Numbered from the stretch's first letter, positions 3,439 to 57,365 are shown. The stretch is 64,000 bases of DNA from Gammaproteobacteria bacterium (GCA_022824965.1 JAJDYY010000008.1:284-64283); one strand, 5' to 3'. The notes: a model not told the origin generated them from the letters alone. Numbers and translations are program-made.

Positions 3439-3927
3439 TCAGTGTCCGTTCAGTTCGCCAGCGGAAATGCCTACCTGCACGATTCGCGCCTGGTCCACAC
3501 CTGCCACCCCGACATACTTGAACGGTGCGCCATCGAGTTCACGTTTTTCCAGGGCCTGGATAACCACGGATTCGCCGCCATGCAAAAGTGCGGCAAAGGG
3601 AGCCGCCTGCGTTCCACTGTTCGGATCGGTCGGAAAACTGAAGGATGTTCCGGGGATATTGGTGAATGCAATCTGGCCGTGCTCGTCACTGATCCAGAAT
3701 TCAGTAATCACCGAATGCTGTGCCACATCGGCCAGTACGGAATTGATGGCCTCCGCACTCATTCCTGCCTTGATGGCAGCATCGATGAAGTGGGCTGTCA
3801 GCTTGGCCTCTGCCACCATGTGCTTTGAGGCAGCGTCCTCTGCTGTCCCGGTGCTCTCGGCCATGAGTCCTCCATGCAGCATGAAGAGTATGCAAATACT
3901 CGAAATCGCCAGTATCTTACGCATCAC
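3439..3927 (-). CDS. Secreted/periplasmic hypothetical protein (162 aa) with N-terminal signal peptide
   Basis: N-terminus MMRKILAISSICILFMLHGGLMA is a typical Sec signal. No recognisable catalytic motif. Confidence 0.55.
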   Translation of the reverse strand: MMRKILAISSICILFMLHGGLMAESTGTAEDAASKHMVAEAKLTAHFIDAAIKAGMSAEAINSVLADVAQHSVITEFWISDEHGQIAFTNIPGTSFSFPTDPNSGTQAAPFAALLHGGESVVIQALEKRELDGAPFKYVGVAGVDQARIVQVGISAGELNGH

Positions 3928-4148
3928 GTATCTCCCAGATTTGCTTTTAAATCACTCCCTGCAGACTTGTCCCTGACAGACCGTATGATTTCGTTTCCAA
4001 ACCCTTCGAGAGGTAACTCTGCAGGCTGGCACAACTCTAGCACAGTCGTGTTTGCTGGCAACCCAATGAACACCTGACATATCACAAATTCTCTACACGC
4101 TGTTACACTTTGATACCGTTGCCCACGCAGACACTATGGTATGATTCT

Positions 4149-4205
4149 CCATAGGTCTCTCGCGTGAGCGGGGATTAGGTCTGGATAGGTCTGGATTAGT
4201 TAGTC
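4149..4205 (+). promoter_or_regulatory. Four phased direct repeats of GGAT(T)AGGTCT (10-11 bp periodicity), 25-80 bp upstream of the Cys-rich peptide gene
   Basis: Read directly: ccATAGGTCTct (4149-4160), GGATTAGGTCT (4172-4182), GGATAGGTCT (4183-4192), GGATTAGttagTC (4193-4205). The 11-mer GATAGGTCTGG (4184-4194) recurs on the minus strand at 9816-9826. Confidence 0.5.
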
Positions 4206-4230
4206 GTCCACTTACAGGAGGAAACTGATT

Positions 4231-4563
4231 ATGACTAAAGCCACACCTTCCAAGTTCGCCCGGGTCCTTTGTCATGCGGCAATTGTGGGCATCCTGTCCA
4301 TGTTGCTGGCGAGTACGGGATTTGCGACCTCAACCGTAGACAGCTGTACGACCGCATACAACAATAACGCCCCCGCAAGACACACTTGCACGCTTTATGA
4401 CGTCTCGGTCACCGGTTCAGGGAATTGCTTCATTCGTGCGACCTGCAACGGTGGAAGTTCTGGTAGTCCCAATACCAGCACCTCCATCGCCGAGAGCAGT
4501 ATGTCCTCCCTGAGAAATTGTAATGGTCGCTTGTCTACTTCCAACCCGTGCCCCGTCAACTGA
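4231..4563 (+). CDS. Small secreted cysteine-rich protein (110 aa precursor; ~78 aa mature with 6 Cys, Ser/Thr/Asn/Gly-rich)
   Basis: Good RBS (caggaggaaactgattATG). N-terminal Sec signal MTKATPSKFARVLCHAAIVGILSMLLASTGFA. Mature part has Cys at 7, 21, 34, 40, 65, 76. GC3 is lower (about 60%) than neighbouring core genes. Convergent with the ABC permease gene, stop-to-stop 6 bp. Confidence 0.65.
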   Translation: MTKATPSKFARVLCHAAIVGILSMLLASTGFATSTVDSCTTAYNNNAPARHTCTLYDVSVTGSGNCFIRATCNGGSSGSPNTSTSIAESSMSSLRNCNGRLSTSNPCPVN

Positions 4564-4568
4564 CCGGG

Positions 4569-5744
4569 CTAGTCTGATCTCAGGGCAGTGACCGGGTCGA
4601 GTTGTGCTGCCCGAACAGCGGGATGAAGCCCGAAGAACACACCGACGCAGCAGGCTACGACAAAGCCCATCAGCGCAGCGGCCAGGTTGACCAGGAACGT
4701 CCAGCCTGTAAACCAGCAGAACAGCCAGGTGCTCACGATGCCGAGCAGGATGCCGAATACACCGCCGAGCAGTGACAAGACAATGGATTCGGTCAGAAAC
4801 TGGCTCTGAATATCGACACGGCGGGCTCCCAGGGCCCGCCGTATCCCGATCTCCTTGCGCCGCTCGTTCACGGAGACCAGCATGATGTTCATTACGCCGA
4901 CCCCGCCGACAATCAGCGATATGCTGCCCACCGCAGCCAGCAACAGAGCGAATGTTTGCATCTGGCGTTCCATCTGTTCAATCAACTTCTGGGCGCTGCC
5001 CACACTGACCTCCAGGTTCGGCATCTTGCGGCGAAAGTAGTTCTTCACTTCCGACGCCACCACCGTGTGATGCACATCCGGCCTCATGCGGGCGGCTACC
5101 ATCCGCACGCCCTGGCGATGAAACATGCGCTGCGCCGTGGTGAGAGGAACCAGAATGGATCGGTTGGCCTCAAAATCCAGTCCAGATCCCGCTACCGGAA
5201 TGTCACGCAGCACGCCCACGATGGTGAAAATGTATCGATTCAGCCTGAGTGATTCACCCACCAGTCGTTCTGCGCCGGCATTTTGCAAAGCCGAGGCGAT
5301 CTCGGCTCCAATCACACAGTAGTAGTGGCGAAAATCCAGGTCCGAGATGGCCCGGCCCTGCTCCATCTGCAGCTTGTTGACTCTGGAAAACGATCCGGTC
5401 ACCCCCAGCGTGCTGGCGTGAGTGATGTTCTTACCGCCATAGATGACCTCGTTGTCGCCTTCGACCCAGGGGGCGACCGCCACGATGGAGGTGATCTCCT
5501 TTGGCAATTCCAGCGCTTCGACCACGGGGATCCGCTCATTTAAACCGACGGGCTTGATGGCGAGATAGTCGGTACCGAGTTCCTTGAACTGTTCCCGGGC
5601 CTGATGCTTGGCGATCGTTCCTACCGAGACCATGGCGATGACCGAGCCGATGCCGATGATGATGCCTAGCAACGCCAGCAGGCTGCGCTGCTTGGTCACG
5701 TACAGGCTGACAACCGCCTCCTTCAGGTTGACTTTCAGGCTCAA
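4569..5744 (-). CDS. ABC transporter permease, MacB/FtsX-type (DevC/LolC-like), 391 aa
   Basis: N-terminal TM helix, large periplasmic domain and C-terminal FtsX-type TM bundle. Overlaps the upstream ATPase gene by 4 nt. Confidence 0.85.
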   Translation of the reverse strand: MSLKVNLKEAVVSLYVTKQRSLLALLGIIIGIGSVIAMVSVGTIAKHQAREQFKELGTDYLAIKPVGLNERIPVVEALELPKEITSIVAVAPWVEGDNEVIYGGKNITHASTLGVTGSFSRVNKLQMEQGRAISDLDFRHYYCVIGAEIASALQNAGAERLVGESLRLNRYIFTIVGVLRDIPVAGSGLDFEANRSILVPLTTAQRMFHRQGVRMVAARMRPDVHHTVVASEVKNYFRRKMPNLEVSVGSAQKLIEQMERQMQTFALLLAAVGSISLIVGGVGVMNIMLVSVNERRKEIGIRRALGARRVDIQSQFLTESIVLSLLGGVFGILLGIVSTWLFCWFTGWTFLVNLAAALMGFVVACCVGVFFGLHPAVRAAQLDPVTALRSD

Positions 5745-6418
5745 CTTGCCCCCTCCTCATGCAGCAGACCGTTCTCGATACGGGTGCGCCGCCCGCACCG
5801 TTGAGCGATCTTTGCATCGTGGGTGATGACGATGAAGGTCGTCCCCTGATCCTGGTTCAGGCGCACGAACAGGTCCATGATGCCGTTGCCGGTATCCTGG
5901 TCAAGGGCACCGGTCGGCTCGTCCGCCAGCACGATGACCGGTCTTCCGACCAGCGCGCGGGCAATCGCAACCCGCTGTTGCTGTCCGCCGCTCATTTCGC
6001 CCGGCTTGTGGTCGAGATGACTCCCCATGCCCACCCGGTCCAGCGCTGCACCGGCCTGGTCTTTGATCTGCGCGTCTTCCATACCGCGGTACACCAGGGG
6101 AATACCCACGTTCTCCAAAGCTGTCAGGCGGGGCAGCAGGTGGAAGGACTGGAACACGAAGCCGATGCTGGCATTACGAATGGCTGAACGCCGGTCGTCC
6201 GACAGGGTCGAGATTTCGCGCTCCTCCAGTACGTACGAGCCGCTGCTGGGTGTATCGAGAAGGCCGATGATGTTCATCAGCGTGGATTTGCCGGACCCCG
6301 ATGCGCCCATGATCGAGACCAGGTCACCCTGATTCACTTCCAAGTCGACGCCGCGCAAGATCTGCACGGGCGTCGGGCCGACAACATAGGTTTTGTTTAT
6401 GTCCGTCAATCGAAGCAT
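5741..6418 (-). CDS. ABC transporter ATP-binding protein (MacB/LolD/DevA-type ATPase)
   Basis: Walker A GASGSGKST, signature LSGGQQQRVAIARAL, Walker B VLADEPTGALD, H-loop ITHD. Confidence 0.93.
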   Translation of the reverse strand: MLRLTDINKTYVVGPTPVQILRGVDLEVNQGDLVSIMGASGSGKSTLMNIIGLLDTPSSGSYVLEEREISTLSDDRRSAIRNASIGFVFQSFHLLPRLTALENVGIPLVYRGMEDAQIKDQAGAALDRVGMGSHLDHKPGEMSGGQQQRVAIARALVGRPVIVLADEPTGALDQDTGNGIMDLFVRLNQDQGTTFIVITHDAKIAQRCGRRTRIENGLLHEEGAS

Positions 6419-6448
6419 CTCATTCGCGGCCGTAGTTCACCTTCGTCA

Positions 6449-8275
6449 TCAGGTGCCGGGGACCATCACTTCGTCGCCGGCGCCGATACCGCGCACGATC
6501 TCCGCCTCATTCAATGTCGTCGCACCCACCTCCACCGGTACTTGCTGCATATCGCCCTGTTGTGTGCGAACGTGTAACCAGTATTGCCCGGGTTCGCCGT
6601 GCACCGCGGCTAGCGGCACGAGCAGAGCCGCGGGCTCATCCCGCACCACCACATCCACCTGGACGGACATGCCCAATCGCAGCCGTTGACGCTGTGCATC
6701 CGTGAGCCGGTCGAGCTCCGCTGTCACGTGGAACATGGGTACGCTGTCGGTATCAGCACGTTGCGACTGCGACGAGACCCACGTGATTTTTCCGTGCAGC
6801 TCGAGATCGGGAAAGGCATCGCCTCGTGCGGTGACCGGCTGTCCCGGTTGCAGCTTCACAATATCCACCTCGTCGACCAGACCGGCTACCGACAGACCGT
6901 CGATATCCCCGACGCTCAGCAGGTAATCCCCTTCGCTCACCGATTGCCCCGTTGCCAGCAGCTCGGCACTGCTTCCTTCCTGGTCGTCATTTCCGTTGCC
7001 GATTTCGGGTTGCAGAACGATCCCGAATACCGGCGCATGAACCACGGAGTCTGCCAGCGTCTTCTTCAGTTCCTGAATGCGCGAGGTTGCATTTTCCAGC
7101 TTGAGCCGGGCGACCTGCATCGTGTCCGTACCGGCCTTGGCCTGCACCGACTCCAGGTCCTGCAACGCCGCCTCGTAGTTCAGCCGTTGAGCTCCGTACT
7201 GACGTTTGGCGGCATCATGTTCCTGAGCGGAAATTATCCCCTGCTCAAGCAGCAGGGAGGTTTCTGACAGTTTGTCCTTGCGCACGTCTAGCTCCAGCTT
7301 GGCGCTTGCCACCGCACGCCGGACGCGACTCACCTCCAGGCTGTTTTCCCAGTCCTCGAGTTCCCTGACCCGCTCGCGTGCCTCAAGGAACTTGGCCTGC
7401 GCCTCCCGGTACTCGCGTTCGACTCCGGCAGTGTCCAGTTCAACCAGCGCCTGACCCGCCGCGACCTGCCCGCCGTACTCGAAAAGCCGCCGGGCCACCT
7501 TGCCGGTGGTCGGGCTGGTGATCCGTACTTCCTGGCGCGGTGCGAGCCTTCCGATAAAGGAAAGCGTTACGGTAAGCTTGCGGGGCGCGACGGTCAGGGT
7601 GGTCACCGTTTCTGCCATGCCCGAGTGCGTACCGGGCGTTACCGCAATTTCTTCTGTGAGTGCGGATCCCGTCTCATTCCAGACATACCCGGCAGCGCCC
7701 AGAAAAAGGAGGATGACGAAGGTACTGGCAACCAGCCGTACCGTCTGCACCTTCTTCAGGGCCGAATCCAGGGCCTCGTTCTTCTCCTCGATCTCGCGAT
7801 AGGCCTCGCGCAGCCTGGCATTCTGCTCTTTGGTCGACTCCACCAGCTGCTGTTCCGCCTTGCGCAGTGCCGCCACTTCAGTGATGTCGCGGAACACGGC
7901 GACGATGCCGATTTTCCGGGGCTCCCCGTCCTTGTAGTCGGCCAGGTACGATGTCGTCACGGCGAGAGACCGTTCCGTGCCGTCTTCAAGCTGCACCCCA
8001 ATCGTCGACTGGGAGCCGACAGCATCATCGTAGACGGCCGCCAGTACGGTGTCGTTGAAGTCTTCCAGACCCTTGATATTCAGAAAAACCTCGGCAAACA
8101 ACTTGCCCCGGATTTCAGCACGGGCCAGCCCCAGCAGCTTCGCGGCCGCAGGATTGAAGATGCCGATACGGGCGTCGGAGTCGACGGTCATGACTCCTTC
8201 ACTCATGCTGTCGAGCACGTTAAGGCGGAGCAGGGAATCCCGGTCCACGGAAGGAGAAGGAGAGGCACCGGTCAT
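6449..8275 (-). CDS. HlyD-family membrane fusion protein (periplasmic adaptor) with an N-terminal cytoplasmic PAS domain, 608 aa
   Basis: Residues ~15-135 have PAS hallmarks (GVMTVDSDARIGIFNPAAAKLLGLARAEIRGK ... IVAVFRDITEVAALRKAEQQL). These are followed by a coiled-coil, one TM helix (LVASTFVILLFLGAAGYVW), then a long HlyD-type domain with barrel-sandwich and beta-barrel regions. The stop overlaps the TolC-like gene start region by 4 nt. Confidence 0.8.
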   Translation of the reverse strand: MTGASPSPSVDRDSLLRLNVLDSMSEGVMTVDSDARIGIFNPAAAKLLGLARAEIRGKLFAEVFLNIKGLEDFNDTVLAAVYDDAVGSQSTIGVQLEDGTERSLAVTTSYLADYKDGEPRKIGIVAVFRDITEVAALRKAEQQLVESTKEQNARLREAYREIEEKNEALDSALKKVQTVRLVASTFVILLFLGAAGYVWNETGSALTEEIAVTPGTHSGMAETVTTLTVAPRKLTVTLSFIGRLAPRQEVRITSPTTGKVARRLFEYGGQVAAGQALVELDTAGVEREYREAQAKFLEARERVRELEDWENSLEVSRVRRAVASAKLELDVRKDKLSETSLLLEQGIISAQEHDAAKRQYGAQRLNYEAALQDLESVQAKAGTDTMQVARLKLENATSRIQELKKTLADSVVHAPVFGIVLQPEIGNGNDDQEGSSAELLATGQSVSEGDYLLSVGDIDGLSVAGLVDEVDIVKLQPGQPVTARGDAFPDLELHGKITWVSSQSQRADTDSVPMFHVTAELDRLTDAQRQRLRLGMSVQVDVVVRDEPAALLVPLAAVHGEPGQYWLHVRTQQGDMQQVPVEVGATTLNEAEIVRGIGAGDEVMVPGT

Positions 8276-9858
8276 CGTTCGCCCCCCCTGACATCATGCG
8301 GCAGGTCGATCCCGATATTCCAGGTATTCAGCGTTGTCCCCTGTATCCGGTCCAGTGCGGTCAGCGCATTAAGGTACGCGACGACCGCGTCGTTTTCATT
8401 GTTCTGGCTTCTGACCAGGTCATCCTCAAACTCAACCAGCCGGAAGTTTGTGGTCAGGCCTGCGCTCAGTCTTATCTGCTCGATCTCGAGCTTTCGCTCG
8501 GCAAGTGCCCTCGCCTGTCGGGCCAGTTCGACGCGCCGATACCGGACCCCGACATCACGCACTGCGGCCCGAACCTCGATATCGATCGACTGGCGAAGCT
8601 CCGCCAGGCGAATCCGCGACTTCTGCAAGGAGAACCTTGCCCTGCGCTGGTCGCGCCGCAAGCTGTCCGCGTTCACTCCCAAAGGGATGTTCAAGCTGAG
8701 CCCGACGCGGTAATCGTCATTAAACCGGCTGTAAGCATCCGACAGCGAACGGCCACTGTTCATCAGGTTTGCCGAGGAGGTGAGGTTCAGCTCCCACCAA
8801 CGCGCATTGTCGGCAACCAGCAGGGCAGTATCCGCGTTTTCGATGATTAACCGCGACTGCAGGTAGTCCGGGCGGTGTTCAAGCGCCAACTCCACCGCGT
8901 GGTCCGCGTTGTGCGTTGCCGGGTCGACGTGCAGCGTCTCCGTTGGCTGGATCAGAGTCTGGCTGTCGATCTCCAGGATATCGATCAGGGCAAGGCGGGC
9001 ATCGTCCAGCGCATCGTAGGCTTCCGTCAGGCTCAACTCCCGTTCTGCGATATTCGCCTCGGTCTGCAAGATATCGTGCTTGGCCATCCTGCCGGTATCG
9101 ATCAGGACCCGGTTCACTTCCAGCTGGTCTCGGGCCCGTTGCAGCGAGCGTTCGCTGATCTCCACCGCACGCATGGACCGGATCACGTGGCGGTACGCAT
9201 AGATGGTCTGGGTCACGATCCCGATGACCGCCGACTTGAAGCCGAGGACGCCGATCTGTTCCTCGCGCCGGGCGGTCACGAGGTCGGCGGTACCGACCGC
9301 GGTGCCGCCACCCTTCAGCAACGGCTGGGCGAACTCCAGCGTAACGAACTGATCTGCACTGTCCTGGTTGGTCACCCGGTTGTTTGCACTCAGGCTCAGT
9401 GTCCCTCCGGTGGGGATCCGCAGGGTAATTTTGGGCGAGATACCCAGCGAGACTTCATCCCAGTCGAGCGGGGAATCGGTCGAGTCGTTGTCAAAGGACA
9501 TCTCGAGCGATGGCGTGAGCCTGAACTCGTCTTCGGAGTCCTGCAGGAAAAGTTTCTGCGAGAGCCGGTCGAGGCGACCCGTGGCAAGGTCCCGGTTGTT
9601 CTGAACGGCCAGCAGGATGGATTCGGCCAGGGTCAGGTCCCGTTTCAGCGAGGTGCCTGGAGCCCGCTCTGCAGCGACGGGTAAGCCCGCCAGAAATGCC
9701 GTCAGGACGAGGAAGATGCACAGTTTCCATGTGATGAGACGACCCGCTCCCGACCAGCCATACGCCCCTCGCTTTCTCGTGCGACGAGGCCCGTGGTTGA
9801 TCGCTGCGGAGAGAACCAGACCTATCAGCTTTGGGATGACAGCTCTGCGCACGTTCAA
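8272..9858 (-). CDS. TolC-like outer membrane efflux protein (OEP family)
   Basis: Two repeats of the TolC-type helical/beta organisation. Signal-peptide-like segment KLCIFLVLTAFLAGLPVAA. The annotated start is TTG at 9858, giving a ~45 aa extension before the signal peptide, so the true start is uncertain. Confidence 0.8.
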   Translation of the reverse strand: MNVRRAVIPKLIGLVLSAAINHGPRRTRKRGAYGWSGAGRLITWKLCIFLVLTAFLAGLPVAAERAPGTSLKRDLTLAESILLAVQNNRDLATGRLDRLSQKLFLQDSEDEFRLTPSLEMSFDNDSTDSPLDWDEVSLGISPKITLRIPTGGTLSLSANNRVTNQDSADQFVTLEFAQPLLKGGGTAVGTADLVTARREEQIGVLGFKSAVIGIVTQTIYAYRHVIRSMRAVEISERSLQRARDQLEVNRVLIDTGRMAKHDILQTEANIAERELSLTEAYDALDDARLALIDILEIDSQTLIQPTETLHVDPATHNADHAVELALEHRPDYLQSRLIIENADTALLVADNARWWELNLTSSANLMNSGRSLSDAYSRFNDDYRVGLSLNIPLGVNADSLRRDQRRARFSLQKSRIRLAELRQSIDIEVRAAVRDVGVRYRRVELARQARALAERKLEIEQIRLSAGLTTNFRLVEFEDDLVRSQNNENDAVVAYLNALTALDRIQGTTLNTWNIGIDLPHDVRGGER

Positions 9859-10123
9859 TGAGTTACAAGATATTTATAAGAACTATCTGCTGCAGTACCT
9901 CTGATTCATCTTCTGACCAGGCGTAATGCCCGTGAGACCCATGGATGGACTGTGTGAATTGCTGATAGTACCCCAATTCAGGGCATGGAGTCCTGTGTAC
10001 GATCAGGAGGAGAAAACCGGGGTTGGAGTCATAAATATGAACCAAGAGCCGCCCTACCGGATACGCCATGTCCTGTCACCCGATGAGTACGGGGGATTTA
10101 TAGACCGCAGGACCCGCAACAGG

Positions 10124-12127
10124 CTACAGCGCCAGATTGATCCCCACATAGGCCTGGAGTGGCATGGCCGGAAAGTAGCGGTCGGTGCCGAAGGCATAGT
10201 CGGCGCGATCGGCGTAGCGCTCATCGAACAGATTGATGACCCGGGCAAACAGGTCGATATGCTCGGTCAGCCTGTAGCCGCCCCGCCAGTTGAGCACGAC
10301 GTGACCCTCGTACTTGGCCGTGTTGGCAGCGTTGGTGTAGTACTCACCCACCCTGTTCAGTTCAAACTCGGAATACCAGCGCTCACCTGGCTCGTAGCGC
10401 CAGCGGGCATGGGTGAGCCAGCGCGGTGCCGAATCCATCAGGTTGCCTTTTTCGATCCGCTCGCCGCGCCCGGCATCACGGGTGAAATCGTACTTGTGTA
10501 CGGCATAGCCGATGGCAAGGCCCAGGGCATGGTCGCCCAGATGCCAGTCGCCGGAAAACTCGAGCCCGGTGGAACGGGTCTTGCCGTCGCTGACGTTGAA
10601 ACCACTGGCGTCACGGAAAATGAAGTCGCGGGTCCACTGGCCGAATGCCGACACCGACCAGGCGCCGCTTCGAAAGCCAGCCTCCACCGACACCAGGCGT
10701 TCGCTGTCCAGGTCCGCCACGGTTTGCCCCTGCTGCAGGCGGTAGAGTTCGGTGGCTTGCGGCGGTCTAAATCCGCTGCTGAGCATCACATAGCTGGAGC
10801 GGTGAGCACCAAAATCGCGCTCAACCCCTAAGCGCCCGGCCACTTCAGTGAACCGGTCTTCCCGGGAGGCCGGACGGGTGTACAGGCAGCCGCCGAAGCC
10901 GCAGGGCGTGCCGTCGTCGCGGCTGTTGCCCGTCAGGTGGCGGTTTTCATAATCGTAGCGCAGGTGCTCAAGGCGCAGGCTGTGCAACAGGCGCAGCTCC
11001 CCGCCCAAGGCTCGGCTCAGATCGTAAAAGCCTGCAGCCATGACCGAATCGACGTCGTAGTCGTAGTGGCGCCCGGCAGGGCGAGTGGCCACTAGGAAGG
11101 CCGACCCGCTCGTCGGTCGATCCTGAATCTCGAGCAGACTGCCCTGCATCGCCTCAGCTTGCGCACCGAATTGTCCGGCCCAGGCCCCGGCTTCAAACTC
11201 CTGGCGGACCAGCATGCCTCCGCTGGTCTGCTCATTGGTCTCGGTCGGCTGTCCAGGCAGGAAGTGCTGCAGAAACTCCATGTGCGAGCGGCGCAGGTAA
11301 GCAGAAACTTGAGTTGGCCCGCGCTGCCAGTGGCTGGCTGCGCGCAAGGACCACGCGTCCCGATAGGCCTCCGGGTAGGGGTTGGAGCGGCGCAGTTCAC
11401 GGTCCTTGTAGGCTTCAAAGCCCTGCACGTAGCCGCCGGTCTCCTGGTTGAGGTGGGTGGCGCTCAGGGTATTGCGTACCCGCCAGGCGCCGAGGTCGGT
11501 AGCATGGACCAGGGAGAACTTCTGCTGGTCATACCCCGTGGCATCCCGGTAACCGTCGGTCTGGCTTGCGTAGGCACTCAGGCCGACGTAGTGCCTGCCA
11601 GCGTGCCCGCCGGATGTGACTCGGACCTGGTGGTAGCCGTAGGAGCCGCTCTCCAGGCTCAGGCCGGCACCTTCAGGATTGGCCGTGAGCACATTGATCG
11701 CCCCGTGCATTGCATTGCCGCCCAGCACGGCACTTGAGGGTCCACGCCAGACCTCGATGCCCCCTGCCTGCTCGCCATTGACCTCGAAGAGGTTGTTGAT
11801 GTTGCAAAACCCCGCGGGGCGAATGGGCACACCGTCCTCAAGGTACAGAAATTTTCCACAGGCTCCGGGTCCGGTAAAGACCGCCGAGCGGATGGCGGTC
11901 AGATGCTCCTGGCCGGACCCCCGGGTCACCCAGACGCTTGGCGCCCGGCTCAGGGCTTCGTGAATATGGTTGTAACGGATCTCCGCCAGTACATCCCCAT
12001 CGATGCGGCTGGCACTGCCTGCAGTGCCGAGGCGCTCGCCGATGGTTCCTGTGACCACGATCTCCCCAATGGGATCCGCGGCGGATAGACTCGCCGGGAT
12101 CACCGCCAGCAGCAACAACCCCGCCAA
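10124..12127 (-). CDS. TonB-dependent outer membrane receptor
   Basis: N-terminal signal, TonB-box-like EIVVTGT, plug-domain motifs (IRYNHIHEALSRAPSVWV, LYLEDGVPIRPAGFCN), and a long beta-barrel region. Start is TTG at 12127. The C-terminus ends ...AYVGINLAL rather than with the usual terminal aromatic residue. Confidence 0.8.
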   Translation of the reverse strand: MAGLLLLAVIPASLSAADPIGEIVVTGTIGERLGTAGSASRIDGDVLAEIRYNHIHEALSRAPSVWVTRGSGQEHLTAIRSAVFTGPGACGKFLYLEDGVPIRPAGFCNINNLFEVNGEQAGGIEVWRGPSSAVLGGNAMHGAINVLTANPEGAGLSLESGSYGYHQVRVTSGGHAGRHYVGLSAYASQTDGYRDATGYDQQKFSLVHATDLGAWRVRNTLSATHLNQETGGYVQGFEAYKDRELRRSNPYPEAYRDAWSLRAASHWQRGPTQVSAYLRRSHMEFLQHFLPGQPTETNEQTSGGMLVRQEFEAGAWAGQFGAQAEAMQGSLLEIQDRPTSGSAFLVATRPAGRHYDYDVDSVMAAGFYDLSRALGGELRLLHSLRLEHLRYDYENRHLTGNSRDDGTPCGFGGCLYTRPASREDRFTEVAGRLGVERDFGAHRSSYVMLSSGFRPPQATELYRLQQGQTVADLDSERLVSVEAGFRSGAWSVSAFGQWTRDFIFRDASGFNVSDGKTRSTGLEFSGDWHLGDHALGLAIGYAVHKYDFTRDAGRGERIEKGNLMDSAPRWLTHARWRYEPGERWYSEFELNRVGEYYTNAANTAKYEGHVVLNWRGGYRLTEHIDLFARVINLFDERYADRADYAFGTDRYFPAMPLQAYVGINLAL

Positions 12128-12250: not shown

Positions 12251-12327
12251 TGGCGCGCCCGGAGAGATTCGAACTCCCGACCGCCTGGTTCGTAGCCAGG
12301 TACTCTATCCAACTGAGCTACGGGCGC
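12251..12327 (-). tRNA. tRNA-Arg, anticodon ACG (77 nt)
   Basis: Reverse complement reads GCGCCCGTAGCTCAGTTGGATAGAGTACCTGGCTACGAACCAGGCGGTCGGGAGTTCGAATCTCTCCGGGCGCGCCA. Differs from the 606-682 copy at 3 positions, including anticodon position 34. Confidence 0.9.
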
Positions 12328-12486: not shown

Positions 12487-12579
12487 GGAGAGGTGCCAGA
12501 GTGGTCGAATGGGGCTCCCTGCTAAGGAGTTGTCTGAGTAATCCTTGGACCGTGGGTTCGAATCCCACTCTCTCCGCCA
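12487..12579 (+). tRNA. tRNA-Ser, anticodon GCT (93 nt, long variable arm)
   Basis: GGAGAGGTGCCAGAGTGGTCGAATGG...CTGCTAA anticodon loop...long variable arm...GGTTCGAATCC...CTCTCCGCCA. Confidence 0.9.
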
Positions 12580-14144: not shown

Positions 14145-14368
14145 GCCGGGCTCCTGCAGTTCGGGGTGTTGCGGTGCAGAATAGCATGCCGGGCAGGCTA
14201 TGAGAATTGCAGACCGGCACAGACTCGCCCGGCCAAATGGGCTGTGCGCATGCTCGAATCGCAAGCCTGAAGGCGCGGTAACGCCTTTAAAATCGTGGTG
14301 TTCGCAGTGAATCAGAGGGTGTGTAGACCCATCGGTGTGTGGGACCCCGTCAGGTCCCGGGTCCGTTA

Positions 14369-14560
14369 CTAGTCCGCTGAATCGCCTGCCTGTGTTTTTT
14401 CGTGCCGGATCCTCTCGTAAATTTCCTCACGGTGCACTGCGACATCTCGGGGTGCATTGACACCTATTCGAACCTGGTTGCCTTTCACGCCCAACACAGT
14501 GACTGTGACATCATCTCCGATCATCAGCGTCTCGCCGACTCTCCTGGTCAAAATCAGCAT
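14369..14560 (-). CDS. csrA: Carbon storage regulator CsrA/RsmA
   Basis: [51 protein letters not shown] is near-identical to canonical CsrA. Confidence 0.97.
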
Positions 14561-56339: not shown

Positions 56340-57365
56340 ATGAGCCTCACATACAAGAAAGCCGGTGTGGACATTGACGCCGGAAAAAGGCTTGTAGACC
56401 GGATCGCACCGGTCGTGCGTGACACCCACCGCCCCGAGGTCATCCCCAACCCCGGTGGATTCGGCGGTCTTTTTGCACCGCGCCTGGACTGCTACACGAA
56501 TCCCGTACTGGTTGCAGGTGCCGACGGCGTCGGCACGAAACTGTCCCTGGCGCAGCAACTGGGCGACCACTCGACCATCGGCGTCGACCTCGTGGCCATG
56601 TGCGCCAACGATGTCGTCGTCCAGGGGGCGGAGCCGCTTTTTTTCCTGGACTACTTTGCCACGGGCGTGCTCTCCGTTGAGCAGGCCCAGGAAGTCATCA
56701 CGGGTATTGCGCATGGCTGCAAGCTGGCGGGCGCCGCATTGATCGGAGGAGAGACCGCGGAGATGCCGGGCATGTACCCGCCCGGAGAGTACGATCTTGC
56801 GGGGTTTTGTGTAGGTCTGGTGGAGCGTGACCGGCTGATTGACGGGCACAGGATCACCGAGGGCGACCGGGTGCTGGGCCTGGCCTCGAGCGGCATTCAT
56901 TCGAACGGCTATTCCCTGGTCAACCGGATCATCGAGACAAGCCGGACCTCGCTCGACGAAAAGCTGGCAGGCCAGACCCTGGGGACACTCCTGCTGACCC
57001 CGACAAGAATCTACACCCAGGTCGTGCTGCAGCTTGTGCAGACCCTGCAAGTGCATGGCCTGTGTCACATCACGGGGGGTGGACTGGTCGAGAACGTACC
57101 GCGTATGATTCCGGATGGTCTGTTAGCGCAGATCGACACCCGGACCTGGGAGCGCCCGGAAGTATTTGACTGGATACAACAGGCGGGTGCCATCGAGGAC
57201 AGGGAAATGCACCGGGTATTCAATTGCGGGATGGGCATGCTGGTGGTCGTGCCTGAAGATCAGGTCGATGCCGGAATGGATCTCTGCCGTCAATCCGGCC
57301 AGTCGGCGGAAATCGTTGGTGAAATCATGTGCTCGGACACGGAAGAAAAAGTTCGTTTGATCTGA
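56340..57365 (+). CDS. purM: Phosphoribosylformylglycinamidine cyclo-ligase
   Basis: YKKAGVDIDAG N-terminus; full-length AIR synthase. Confidence 0.96.
   Translation: MSLTYKKAGVDIDAGKRLVDRIAPVVRDTHRPEVIPNPGGFGGLFAPRLDCYTNPVLVAGADGVGTKLSLAQQLGDHSTIGVDLVAMCANDVVVQGAEPLFFLDYFATGVLSVEQAQEVITGIAHGCKLAGAALIGGETAEMPGMYPPGEYDLAGFCVGLVERDRLIDGHRITEGDRVLGLASSGIHSNGYSLVNRIIETSRTSLDEKLAGQTLGTLLLTPTRIYTQVVLQLVQTLQVHGLCHITGGGLVENVPRMIPDGLLAQIDTRTWERPEVFDWIQQAGAIEDREMHRVFNCGMGMLVVVPEDQVDAGMDLCRQSGQSAEIVGEIMCSDTEEKVRLI

Follow-up and report, generated by a model that had tools for sequence, protein, structure and literature searches.

TorR recognizes decameric tor boxes, in pho-box-type arrangements an activator site substitutes for the −35 promoter element, and anti-Shine-Dalgarno leaders are hairpins in the 5′ untranslated region (5′ UTR) of a messenger RNA (mRNA) that inhibit translation. 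The site of PhoP from Mycobacterium tuberculosis consists of 7-bp direct repeats with a 4-bp spacer and an 11-bp period (PMC4832192), and that of KdpE of two 6-bp half-sites (PMC3264566). MacAB-TolC, in turn, exports the Sec-delivered, disulfide-bonded enterotoxin STII from the periplasm (PMC5985334). Here, we analyze a 64,000-nucleotide (nt) stretch of DNA from a gammaproteobacterium (GCA_022824965.1, JAJDYY010000008.1:284-64283; the window in the following, with coordinates counted from its first letter), in which the 11-mer GATAGGTCTGG occurs both upstream of the gene of a small cysteine-rich secreted protein (the peptide) and at the 5′ end of the operon of its putative exporter. The original prediction took this shared word, together with phased direct repeats, for a common operator. 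If true, such an operator would define a small regulon that joins a rare disulfide-rich secreted protein and a MacB-type exporter in an uncultured gammaproteobacterium. As outlined below, the two copies of GATAGGTCTGG are probably a coincidence and not a shared operator. The elements and genes concerned are the following:

4184–4194, plus strand: 11-mer GATAGGTCTGG, peptide side, across the boundary between units 2 and 3 of the repeat
9816–9826, minus strand: 11-mer GATAGGTCTGG, exporter side, single copy, covering most of codons 11–15 (Lys-Leu-Ile-Gly-Leu-Val) in the TTG-9858 frame
4231–4563, plus strand: gene of a secreted protein of 110 amino acids (aa) with six cysteines, an open reading frame (ORF) with a signal peptide and a mature part of ~77 aa
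8272–9858, minus strand: gene of a TolC-like outer-membrane factor, first of the exporter operon (PF02321)
8275–6449, minus strand: adaptor gene, N-terminal PAS domain plus HlyD-type body (PF13437, PF16576, PAS PF00989)
6418–5741, minus strand: ABC ATPase gene (PF00005)
5744–4569, minus strand: MacB_PCD/FtsX permease gene (PF12704, PF02687)

The four-gene exporter operon on the minus strand is convergent with the peptide gene on the plus strand and, according to Pfam, holds a full MacAB-TolC-type set (MacB_PCD plus FtsX, ABC ATPase, HlyD-family adaptor, OEP factor), while the 110-aa protein has no Pfam match. Since this parts list fits a MacAB-TolC pump, a peptide encoded next to its own exporter is a reasonable reading of the locus. 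The pair of peptide gene and MacB-type exporter is syntenic in the related loci L001, L006, and L012 and present as remnants in L002, L017, and L022.

The proposal that GATAGGTCTGG and the phased repeats form a shared operator is not supported: the word lies within chance expectation and is absent from five relatives, the exporter offers a lone half-site, and the repeats lie downstream of the probable −10 element. Two half-sites per promoter, similarity beyond chance or motif enrichment, and conserved sites in orthologous promoters would all be required of a shared operator of the OmpR/PhoB type; the first is lacking at the exporter, and the second and third were not found. With the 11-mer within chance and the repeat within what is predicted to be a transcribed leader, both are poor evidence for a common operator. 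Instead, we consider it reasonably likely that an 11-mer shared by chance coincides with a microduplication that is specific to the lineage and lies in the peptide leader, whose structure it helps to form.

Both copies of the 11-mer are exact and lie where they had been reported, the exporter-side one in the orientation of the operon and near the 5′ end of its first gene, 32–42 nt downstream of TTG 9858, the first codon of the longest TolC-like ORF. The window holds no further copy, even with one mismatch. The claim that an exact 11-mer is unlikely to be shared by chance fails, however: the quoted expectation of about 0.03 is the value for a single pre-chosen word, whereas for the 120 11-mers of 4100–4230 about 3.7 matches are expected elsewhere in the 64 kb (both strands) and one is seen. 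When the region upstream of the peptide gene was aligned locally with the TolC 5′ region, the best alignment consisted of nothing but the 11-mer (score 22). A score as high was obtained in 3.4 % of shuffles and in 25 of 836 other 300-nt chunks of the window, and Smith-Waterman alignment with two scoring schemes found no similarity extending past it. The degenerate motif GGATWAGGTCT with up to two mismatches is not enriched in the window (15 matches vs. 15.2 expected), TAGGTCTGG is also found at 56812 within an ordinary coding region, and tandem repeats of equal score number four in the 64 kb. Furthermore, the 18-mer AGGTCTGGATAGGTCTGG occurs exactly in 41 metagenome stretches (L023–L063), none of which encodes the peptide and whose flanks are unlike those of the window; several groups among them have flanks in common with each other, for example, ...CACCAGGTCTGGATAGGTCTGGCC.... 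A protein-pattern scan of Joint Genome Institute (JGI) metagenomes yielded no further relatives. Altogether, none of the 11-mer statistics exceeds the yield of a post hoc search.

On the peptide side, the word is part of a short repeat:

4172–4203, plus strand: tandem direct repeat GGATTAGGTCT / GGATAGGTCT / degenerate GGATTAGTTAG in the peptide leader
4149–4158, plus strand: partial distal copy CCATAGGTCT, approximately at the predicted transcription start, 5′ arm of a predicted hairpin

The three units occupy 4172–4182, 4183–4192, and 4193–4203 (the last matching at 8/11 positions), and the distal copy lies 24 nt upstream of the next one. The heptamer TAGGTCT accordingly starts at 4152, 4176, and 4186, followed by TAGTTAG at 4197 (spacings of 24, 10, and 11), and Tandem Repeats Finder scores only 4176–4196 (2.1 copies, period 10, 100 % match). 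Hence, a repeat does exist upstream of the peptide gene, but the four copies at 10–11 bp spacing that had been described reduce to two exact units, a degenerate one, and a partial one 24 nt away. A pair of half-sites with a 10–11 nt period is present at the peptide site only. The repeat is kept in close strains, except for the substitution T4176C in L006 and L012–L014.

The exporter-side copy is a lone half-site that most likely lies in the mRNA and is no promoter repeat. No second half-site lies 10–11 nt from it, the flanks TCTCTCC and CCCAAAG matching at no more than 3/7 positions. Because of an in-frame stop at 9876–9874 and the lack of any ATG, GTG, or TTG between 9852 and the signal-peptide core, TTG 9858 and GTG 9852 are the only canonical starts of the TolC-like ORF. 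Compared to L012, a block free of substitutions spans 9775–9866, its edge lying ~8 nt upstream of TTG 9858, while six substitutions cluster at 9867–9889, a pattern that fits a start at TTG 9858. The copy thus most likely lies within the translated 5′ end of the ORF, that is, within ~32 extra N-terminal codons relative to L001, L002, L017, and L022. A duplicated signal peptide as the source of this N-terminal extension was rejected (p = 0.15 at the protein level, nothing at the DNA level). Within this 5′ part of the TolC-like ORF (9736–9858, minus strand), a short out-of-frame ORF starts from an ATG near 9761, after a GAGG-like ribosome-binding site.

Related loci were gathered in three ways, namely by exact protein look-up, by a protein-pattern genome scan, and via adaptor homologues. 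The close strains, L006 and L012–L015, stem from the same metagenome series and hold both copies of GATAGGTCTGG. As their spacer DNA is ~95 % identical overall, this retention says nothing on constraint, and an excess of constraint on GATAGGTCTGG is not demonstrable among strains of such identity. More informative are the distant relatives L001, L002, L017, and L022 (adaptor identities of 71, 68, 77, and 74 %, respectively) and L016 (peptide identity of 74 %), in all of which the 11-mer is absent from both sites. The peptide gene and its neighbor diverge more between close strains than the surrounding genes do: across 4231–5744, the peptide gene is 87 % and the permease gene 91 % identical to L012 at the nucleotide level, in comparison to 95–98 % for the flanking genes. 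Sixteen codons of the peptide gene differ nonsynonymously and 14 only synonymously, and 21 of the 25 amino-acid changes in the MacB permease fall into the periplasmic domain (residues 51–254). This divergence could reflect co-variation of cargo and pump or a recombined segment. The family of the 6-Cys protein is tiny, with three close homologues in 5.8 billion clusters and six matches at E ≤ 1e-3 among 1.84 billion representatives; as there are just these six, no extra upstream regions are available for comparison. Its distant members retain the pattern ARHxC ... SGxC ... C ... NCxGxL ... C, and one of them is a tandem double domain.

While the distant relatives lack the 11-mer, they do have elements in common between cargo and exporter promoters. 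A module of 61 nt (A2 type; consensus CCCGAAATACTCACAATTnAAnGCTTTGnCnACACAATATTCACACGATTGTTnTGTTAAAAT) is found in eight copies and consists of a distal CTCACAAT box, a proximal CACAATATTCACA box, and an extended −10 element TGnTAnAnT:

L002, 8301–8360: A2 module copy
L002, 15549–15489, minus strand: A2 module copy
L016, 249–309: A2 module copy
L017, 8391–8450: A2 module copy
L017, 14498–14438, minus strand: A2 module copy
L017, 17326–17267, minus strand: A2 module copy
L017, 8303–8244, minus strand: A2 module copy
L022, 1447–1506: A2 module copy

Most of these copies stand before a TolC operon or the gene of a small secreted cargo protein; two of those in L017 are orphans. The cargo behind the module is the 6-Cys peptide or a remnant of it, a 165-aa protein in L017, or a 146-aa protein in L022. 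In L001, the promoters of peptide and TolC have more than 70 nt of a second module type in common, which features the box ACGTTCACAAAKATTTTGCTA. A CAC core is invariant throughout (CTCACAAT ... CACAATATTCACA in the A2 type, TCAC(G/A)-N6-TCACA in L001), and the boxes follow the scheme (A/T)CACA-N6-T(C/T)ACA and end 10–12 nt upstream of the extended −10 element, an arrangement that by analogy may be that of an activator replacing the −35 element. When the two upstream regions of one genome were compared against shuffles, cargo and TolC upstream regions were similar in L001 (z = 11.9) and L017 (z = 6.6), with 60–190 nt shared, as opposed to z = −1.2 in the window. A true shared element in this system hence looks like at least 60 nt with z > 6. 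No A2 module was detected in the window by nhmmer (no match at E < 1000, vs. E = 5e-17 to 2e-3 for the eight copies of the relatives), pattern searches for the A2 box and the L001 box ACGTTCACAAAKATTTTGCTA in both of its upstream regions were negative, and its close strains hold no copy of either module type.

The relatives furthermore encode a candidate regulator beside the exporter, a protein of 782–786 aa with GAF-PAS-HisKA-HATPase-REC-Trans_reg_C architecture, that is, a sensor kinase and an OmpR-type regulator fused in one chain:

L001, 14368–16728: fused regulator gene
L002, 15538–17895: fused regulator gene
L017, 17315–19663: fused regulator gene
L020, 16305–18659: fused regulator gene
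L018, 6497–6706: remnant of the fused regulator gene

Searches of the window with these proteins (tblastn, even at E ≤ 1) retrieved no homologue or remnant of kinase or response regulator, which bears out the expectation that the DNA-binding regulator is not encoded there. The gene is missing from the lineage of the window within ±10 kb, and no remnant was found near L016. Co-regulation of peptide and exporter by one protein was therefore partly a good guess: the relatives share a module and a regulator, but the window has neither. Judged from sequence, such co-regulation of cargo and exporter appears to hold for the relatives, albeit via a different and longer module. The idea is thus right for the family and yet unreadable from the 11-mer, since the module and the regulator of the relatives are lacking in the window. 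The relatives represent a cleaner, testable case of cargo/exporter co-regulation and are in this respect a more useful result than the 11-mer itself. The cargo genes by the exporter are interchangeable and often decayed, with a 5′-truncated remnant of the 6-Cys gene in L002 (15463–15350, minus strand), mere fragments in L017 (13690–14500, minus strand) and L022 (1560–2155), and unrelated secreted proteins behind the A2 module in the latter two (~165 and ~146 aa, respectively).

The peptide repeat finds its most plausible place in the leader, for which the following elements were identified or predicted:

4137–4145, plus strand: extended −10 element TGGTATGAT, best candidate promoter element of the peptide gene, invariant in all strains
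4216–4221, plus strand: Shine-Dalgarno sequence AGGAGG, 9 nt 5′ of the peptide ATG
4154–4176, plus strand: predicted RNA hairpin 1 with GNRA tetraloop GUGA (arms: GGUCUC of the distal copy, GGGGAUU of unit 1)
4188–4237, plus strand: predicted RNA hairpin 2, in which GAUUAGUU of unit 3 pairs with AACUGAUU just 5′ of the AUG

A simple sigma70 scan gave no full −35/−10 pair on the peptide strand. The element TGGTATGAT is the only −10-like one that is invariant across strains, whereas the alternative TACACT (4104–4109) lacks the essential final T in L006 and L012–L014. Transcription is accordingly predicted to start near 4152, which would give a leader of ~79 nt containing all repeat copies; the peptide repeats lie 27–58 nt downstream of the −10-like element. 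Along these lines, a 10-nt microduplication specific to the lineage, with two copies of TAGGTCTGGA and a decayed third unit, would have arisen in the 5′ leader of the peptide gene. It would lie between the presumed start and the Shine-Dalgarno sequence, its bases being used in the two predicted hairpins, in the second of which unit 3 may pair with nucleotides directly 5′ of the AUG while the ribosome-binding site is covered in part (AGGAGG is partly paired in this prediction). If functional at all, the repeat most likely tunes translation or stability of a single mRNA, because its bases sit in these two hairpins.

Comparison of strains is consistent with such a structure. The predicted hairpins occur in all four strain variants, and the region of hairpin 2 shows zero sequence variation. 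In hairpin 1, L012 differs from the window by C4161T, T4165C, an added G, and T4176C, and all four changes keep or improve the predicted structure (C-G to U-G, loop GUGA to GCGA, pairing of a bulged U by the added G, and G-U to G-C, respectively). The last of these, T4176C, is the sole substitution within the repeats and breaks the identity of the units while turning a predicted G-U into a G-C pair. Compared to 200 shuffles, the L012 leader folds better than all of them (z = −3.5).

The leader also brings up regulation at the RNA level, whereby the 11 nt common to both mRNAs would be targeted by one small RNA or by a protein of the CsrA/RsmA type. Both copies lie on the sense strand of their own mRNAs, and the peptide leader contains five GGA in ~79 nt, including one in the Shine-Dalgarno sequence. 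No Rfam family matched across 3800–10400 at E ≤ 1, however, the complementary sequence was not found elsewhere in the window (two matches on both strands with up to one mismatch), and no significant fold was detected in the TolC 5′ region (z = −0.4), so that we regard this scenario as very improbable. In particular, CsrA-type GGA sites were rejected, as the exporter copy has no GGA, the triplets of the peptide leader lie mostly in predicted stems rather than in loops, and the 190-nt leader of L001 shows no enrichment (~5 vs. ~3.4 expected from base composition, counted by eye).

Several observations weigh against a chance 11-mer combined with a structural leader repeat. As regards the leader, the transcription start of the peptide gene is a prediction from sequence, the leader of the window itself folds just marginally better than shuffles (z = −1.7), and no hairpin pair is changed on both sides (no double-sided covariation), which leaves the hairpins plausible but unproven. 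In the TolC-like ORF, moreover, codons 1–41 lack the bias in GC content at third codon positions (0.63/0.60/0.62 over the three positions vs. 0.64/0.42/0.78 in the rest of the gene), so that the true start is uncertain, as had been noted before; with a non-canonical start further downstream (near 9735), the exporter copy could lie in a 5′ UTR. The canonical start codons and the substitution pattern favor a coding position. As regards the shared word, the 7-nt core with 3–4 nt spacers and a 10–11 nt period matches the half-site geometry of the OmpR/PhoB type, and a nominal p of ~0.01–0.03 results if peptide upstream region and operon 5′ end, in the same orientation, are compared as a pre-specified test. 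A second weak similarity links CGGGGATTAGGTCTGGATAG (4169–4188) and CGGGCATTACGCCTGGTCAG (9931–9912, upstream of TolC) with 15/20 matches, which we treat as noise since 3.8 % of controls reach it. Finally, the lineage that gained both copies of TAGGTCTGG is also the one that lost the ancestral module and its linked regulator, as would fit a rewiring.

In part, these observations speak for the TAGGTCT repeats as the operator of an unlinked OmpR/NarL-type regulator or repressor that co-regulates peptide and exporter. Beyond the core and its period and the second similarity upstream of TolC, this alternative can invoke the exact 11-mer in the same orientation at both units (nominal region-level p ~0.03), the apparent co-regulation of cargo and exporter in relatives with linkage to an OmpR-type regulator, and the stretches 4177–4230 and 9775–9866, which are free of substitutions compared to L012. 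Such gaps are non-significant at 5 % divergence, though, and the only substitution in the repeats alters a unit. In addition, the match remains within window-wide chance, the exporter has a single half-site, the motif is not enriched in the window and is unconserved in every relative below ~95 % DNA identity, and neither a regulator nor the box of the relatives is present in the window. Since the likely promoters lie upstream of both sites, the protein would have to act as a repressor or roadblock. All things considered, we find this operator unlikely. A rewiring, in which the ancestral module and the fused regulator were lost, a TAGGTCT operator was born in the leader with one unit reaching the ~96-nt lineage-specific segment of the exporter, and an unlinked repressor binds the downstream sites, would account for the coincident gains and losses, but is in our view quite unlikely. 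We retain the chance 11-mer with a leader microduplication as the preferred reading.

Another conceivable link between the two promoters concerns the words ACAC and TCAC, which of all 4-mer classes show the strongest over-representation in either upstream region. In front of the peptide gene (4060–4140, plus strand), five WCAC fall within 70 nt, which is the maximum of the plus strand (top 0.04 % of windows), and upstream of TolC (9915–10005, minus strand) there are four (top 0.2 % of windows). These words might form a degenerate half-site array (~4070–4135 and ~9998–9932) to which an unlinked orthologue of the fused regulator would bind, since their CAC core is also an invariant part of the modules of the relatives and TACAC-N5-TACAC occurs at 4094–4108. 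However, the word is short and the analysis post hoc, the spacings are irregular (12, 13, 10, and 26), a −10 element is missing at the distance that the relatives show, and nhmmer with the module profile was negative in the window. WCAC clusters also occur elsewhere, given that the minus-strand maximum lies upstream of an ammonium-transporter gene (~14300–14370, minus strand). This array is a doubtful, post hoc lead that is compatible with a chance 11-mer and a leader microduplication.

Further elements in the vicinity are as follows:

3927–3439, minus strand: divergent gene of a 162-aa secreted protein, upstream of the peptide gene
4027–4061, minus strand: sigma70-like promoter TTGCCA-16-TAGAGT with TG extension, for the divergent 162-aa gene
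10148–10157, plus strand: near-copy ATAGGCCTGG, in the last codons of the TonB-dependent receptor gene, opposite orientation
12127–10124, minus strand: TonB-dependent receptor gene, upstream of the operon

A weak sigma54-like element had been noted at 4027–4042, and TGGCAC-N5-TAGCA is indeed present there as the sole exact match to TGGCAC-N5-TWGCW in the window (with one mismatch, 3 matches vs. 4.1 expected). On the opposite strand, however, its reverse complement reads TGCTAGAGT and forms the extended −10 of a good sigma70-type promoter, which probably explains the sigma54-like match. Similarly, the near-copy ATAGGCCTGG exists, but inside the receptor gene and as part of no element. The PAS domain on the HlyD-type adaptor (6449–8275, minus strand) is unusual for MacA-type adaptors, and PAS-HlyD architecture is widespread, with 110 database proteins at E ≤ 1e-60 from several phyla, most of which carry PAS-family matches in precomputed Pfam annotation. 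The block of msrPQ, peptide, exporter, and receptor genes is bounded by tRNA-Arg genes, with a tRNA-Ser gene nearby (606–682, 12251–12327, and 12487–12579). In the near-identical strain L006, the stretch upstream of msrQ (L006 93–3929) contains genes of a cyclic-oligonucleotide-based antiphage signaling system (CBASS; E2-CBASS, SMODS, patatin) and a pair of helix-turn-helix (HTH) and M78 genes, pointing to a variable island in this place.

Compared to described OmpR/PhoB-family boxes, the window repeat resembles a dimer site of winged-helix proteins in its geometry, that is, in the 7-nt TAGGTCT core arranged head to tail at 10–11 nt. It differs in that it has two good units, lies downstream of a probable −10 element, and would thus neither overlap nor replace a −35 element; at the exporter, there is one unit, the window encodes no cognate regulator, and the motif is unconserved in relatives. 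With regard to the cargo/exporter module of these relatives, the neighborhood is alike (a small secreted Cys protein next to a TolC/PAS-HlyD/ABC/MacB operon), whereas the window has no module copy, no extended upstream similarity, and no adjacent fused regulator. As in anti-Shine-Dalgarno leaders, hairpin 2 is predicted to pair unit 3 before the AUG and to partly cover AGGAGG; unlike in these, there is no covariation, the Rfam search was negative, and the thermodynamic significance in the window's own sequence is marginal. What sets the locus apart from MacAB-TolC and STII is an adaptor with a PAS domain at its N-terminus and a cargo without relationship to STII; moreover, export is deduced from synteny only. 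The same pump parts are nonetheless encoded here, adjacent to the gene of a small 6-Cys protein with a signal peptide, and a two-step export of the periplasmic peptide by this pump is plausible.

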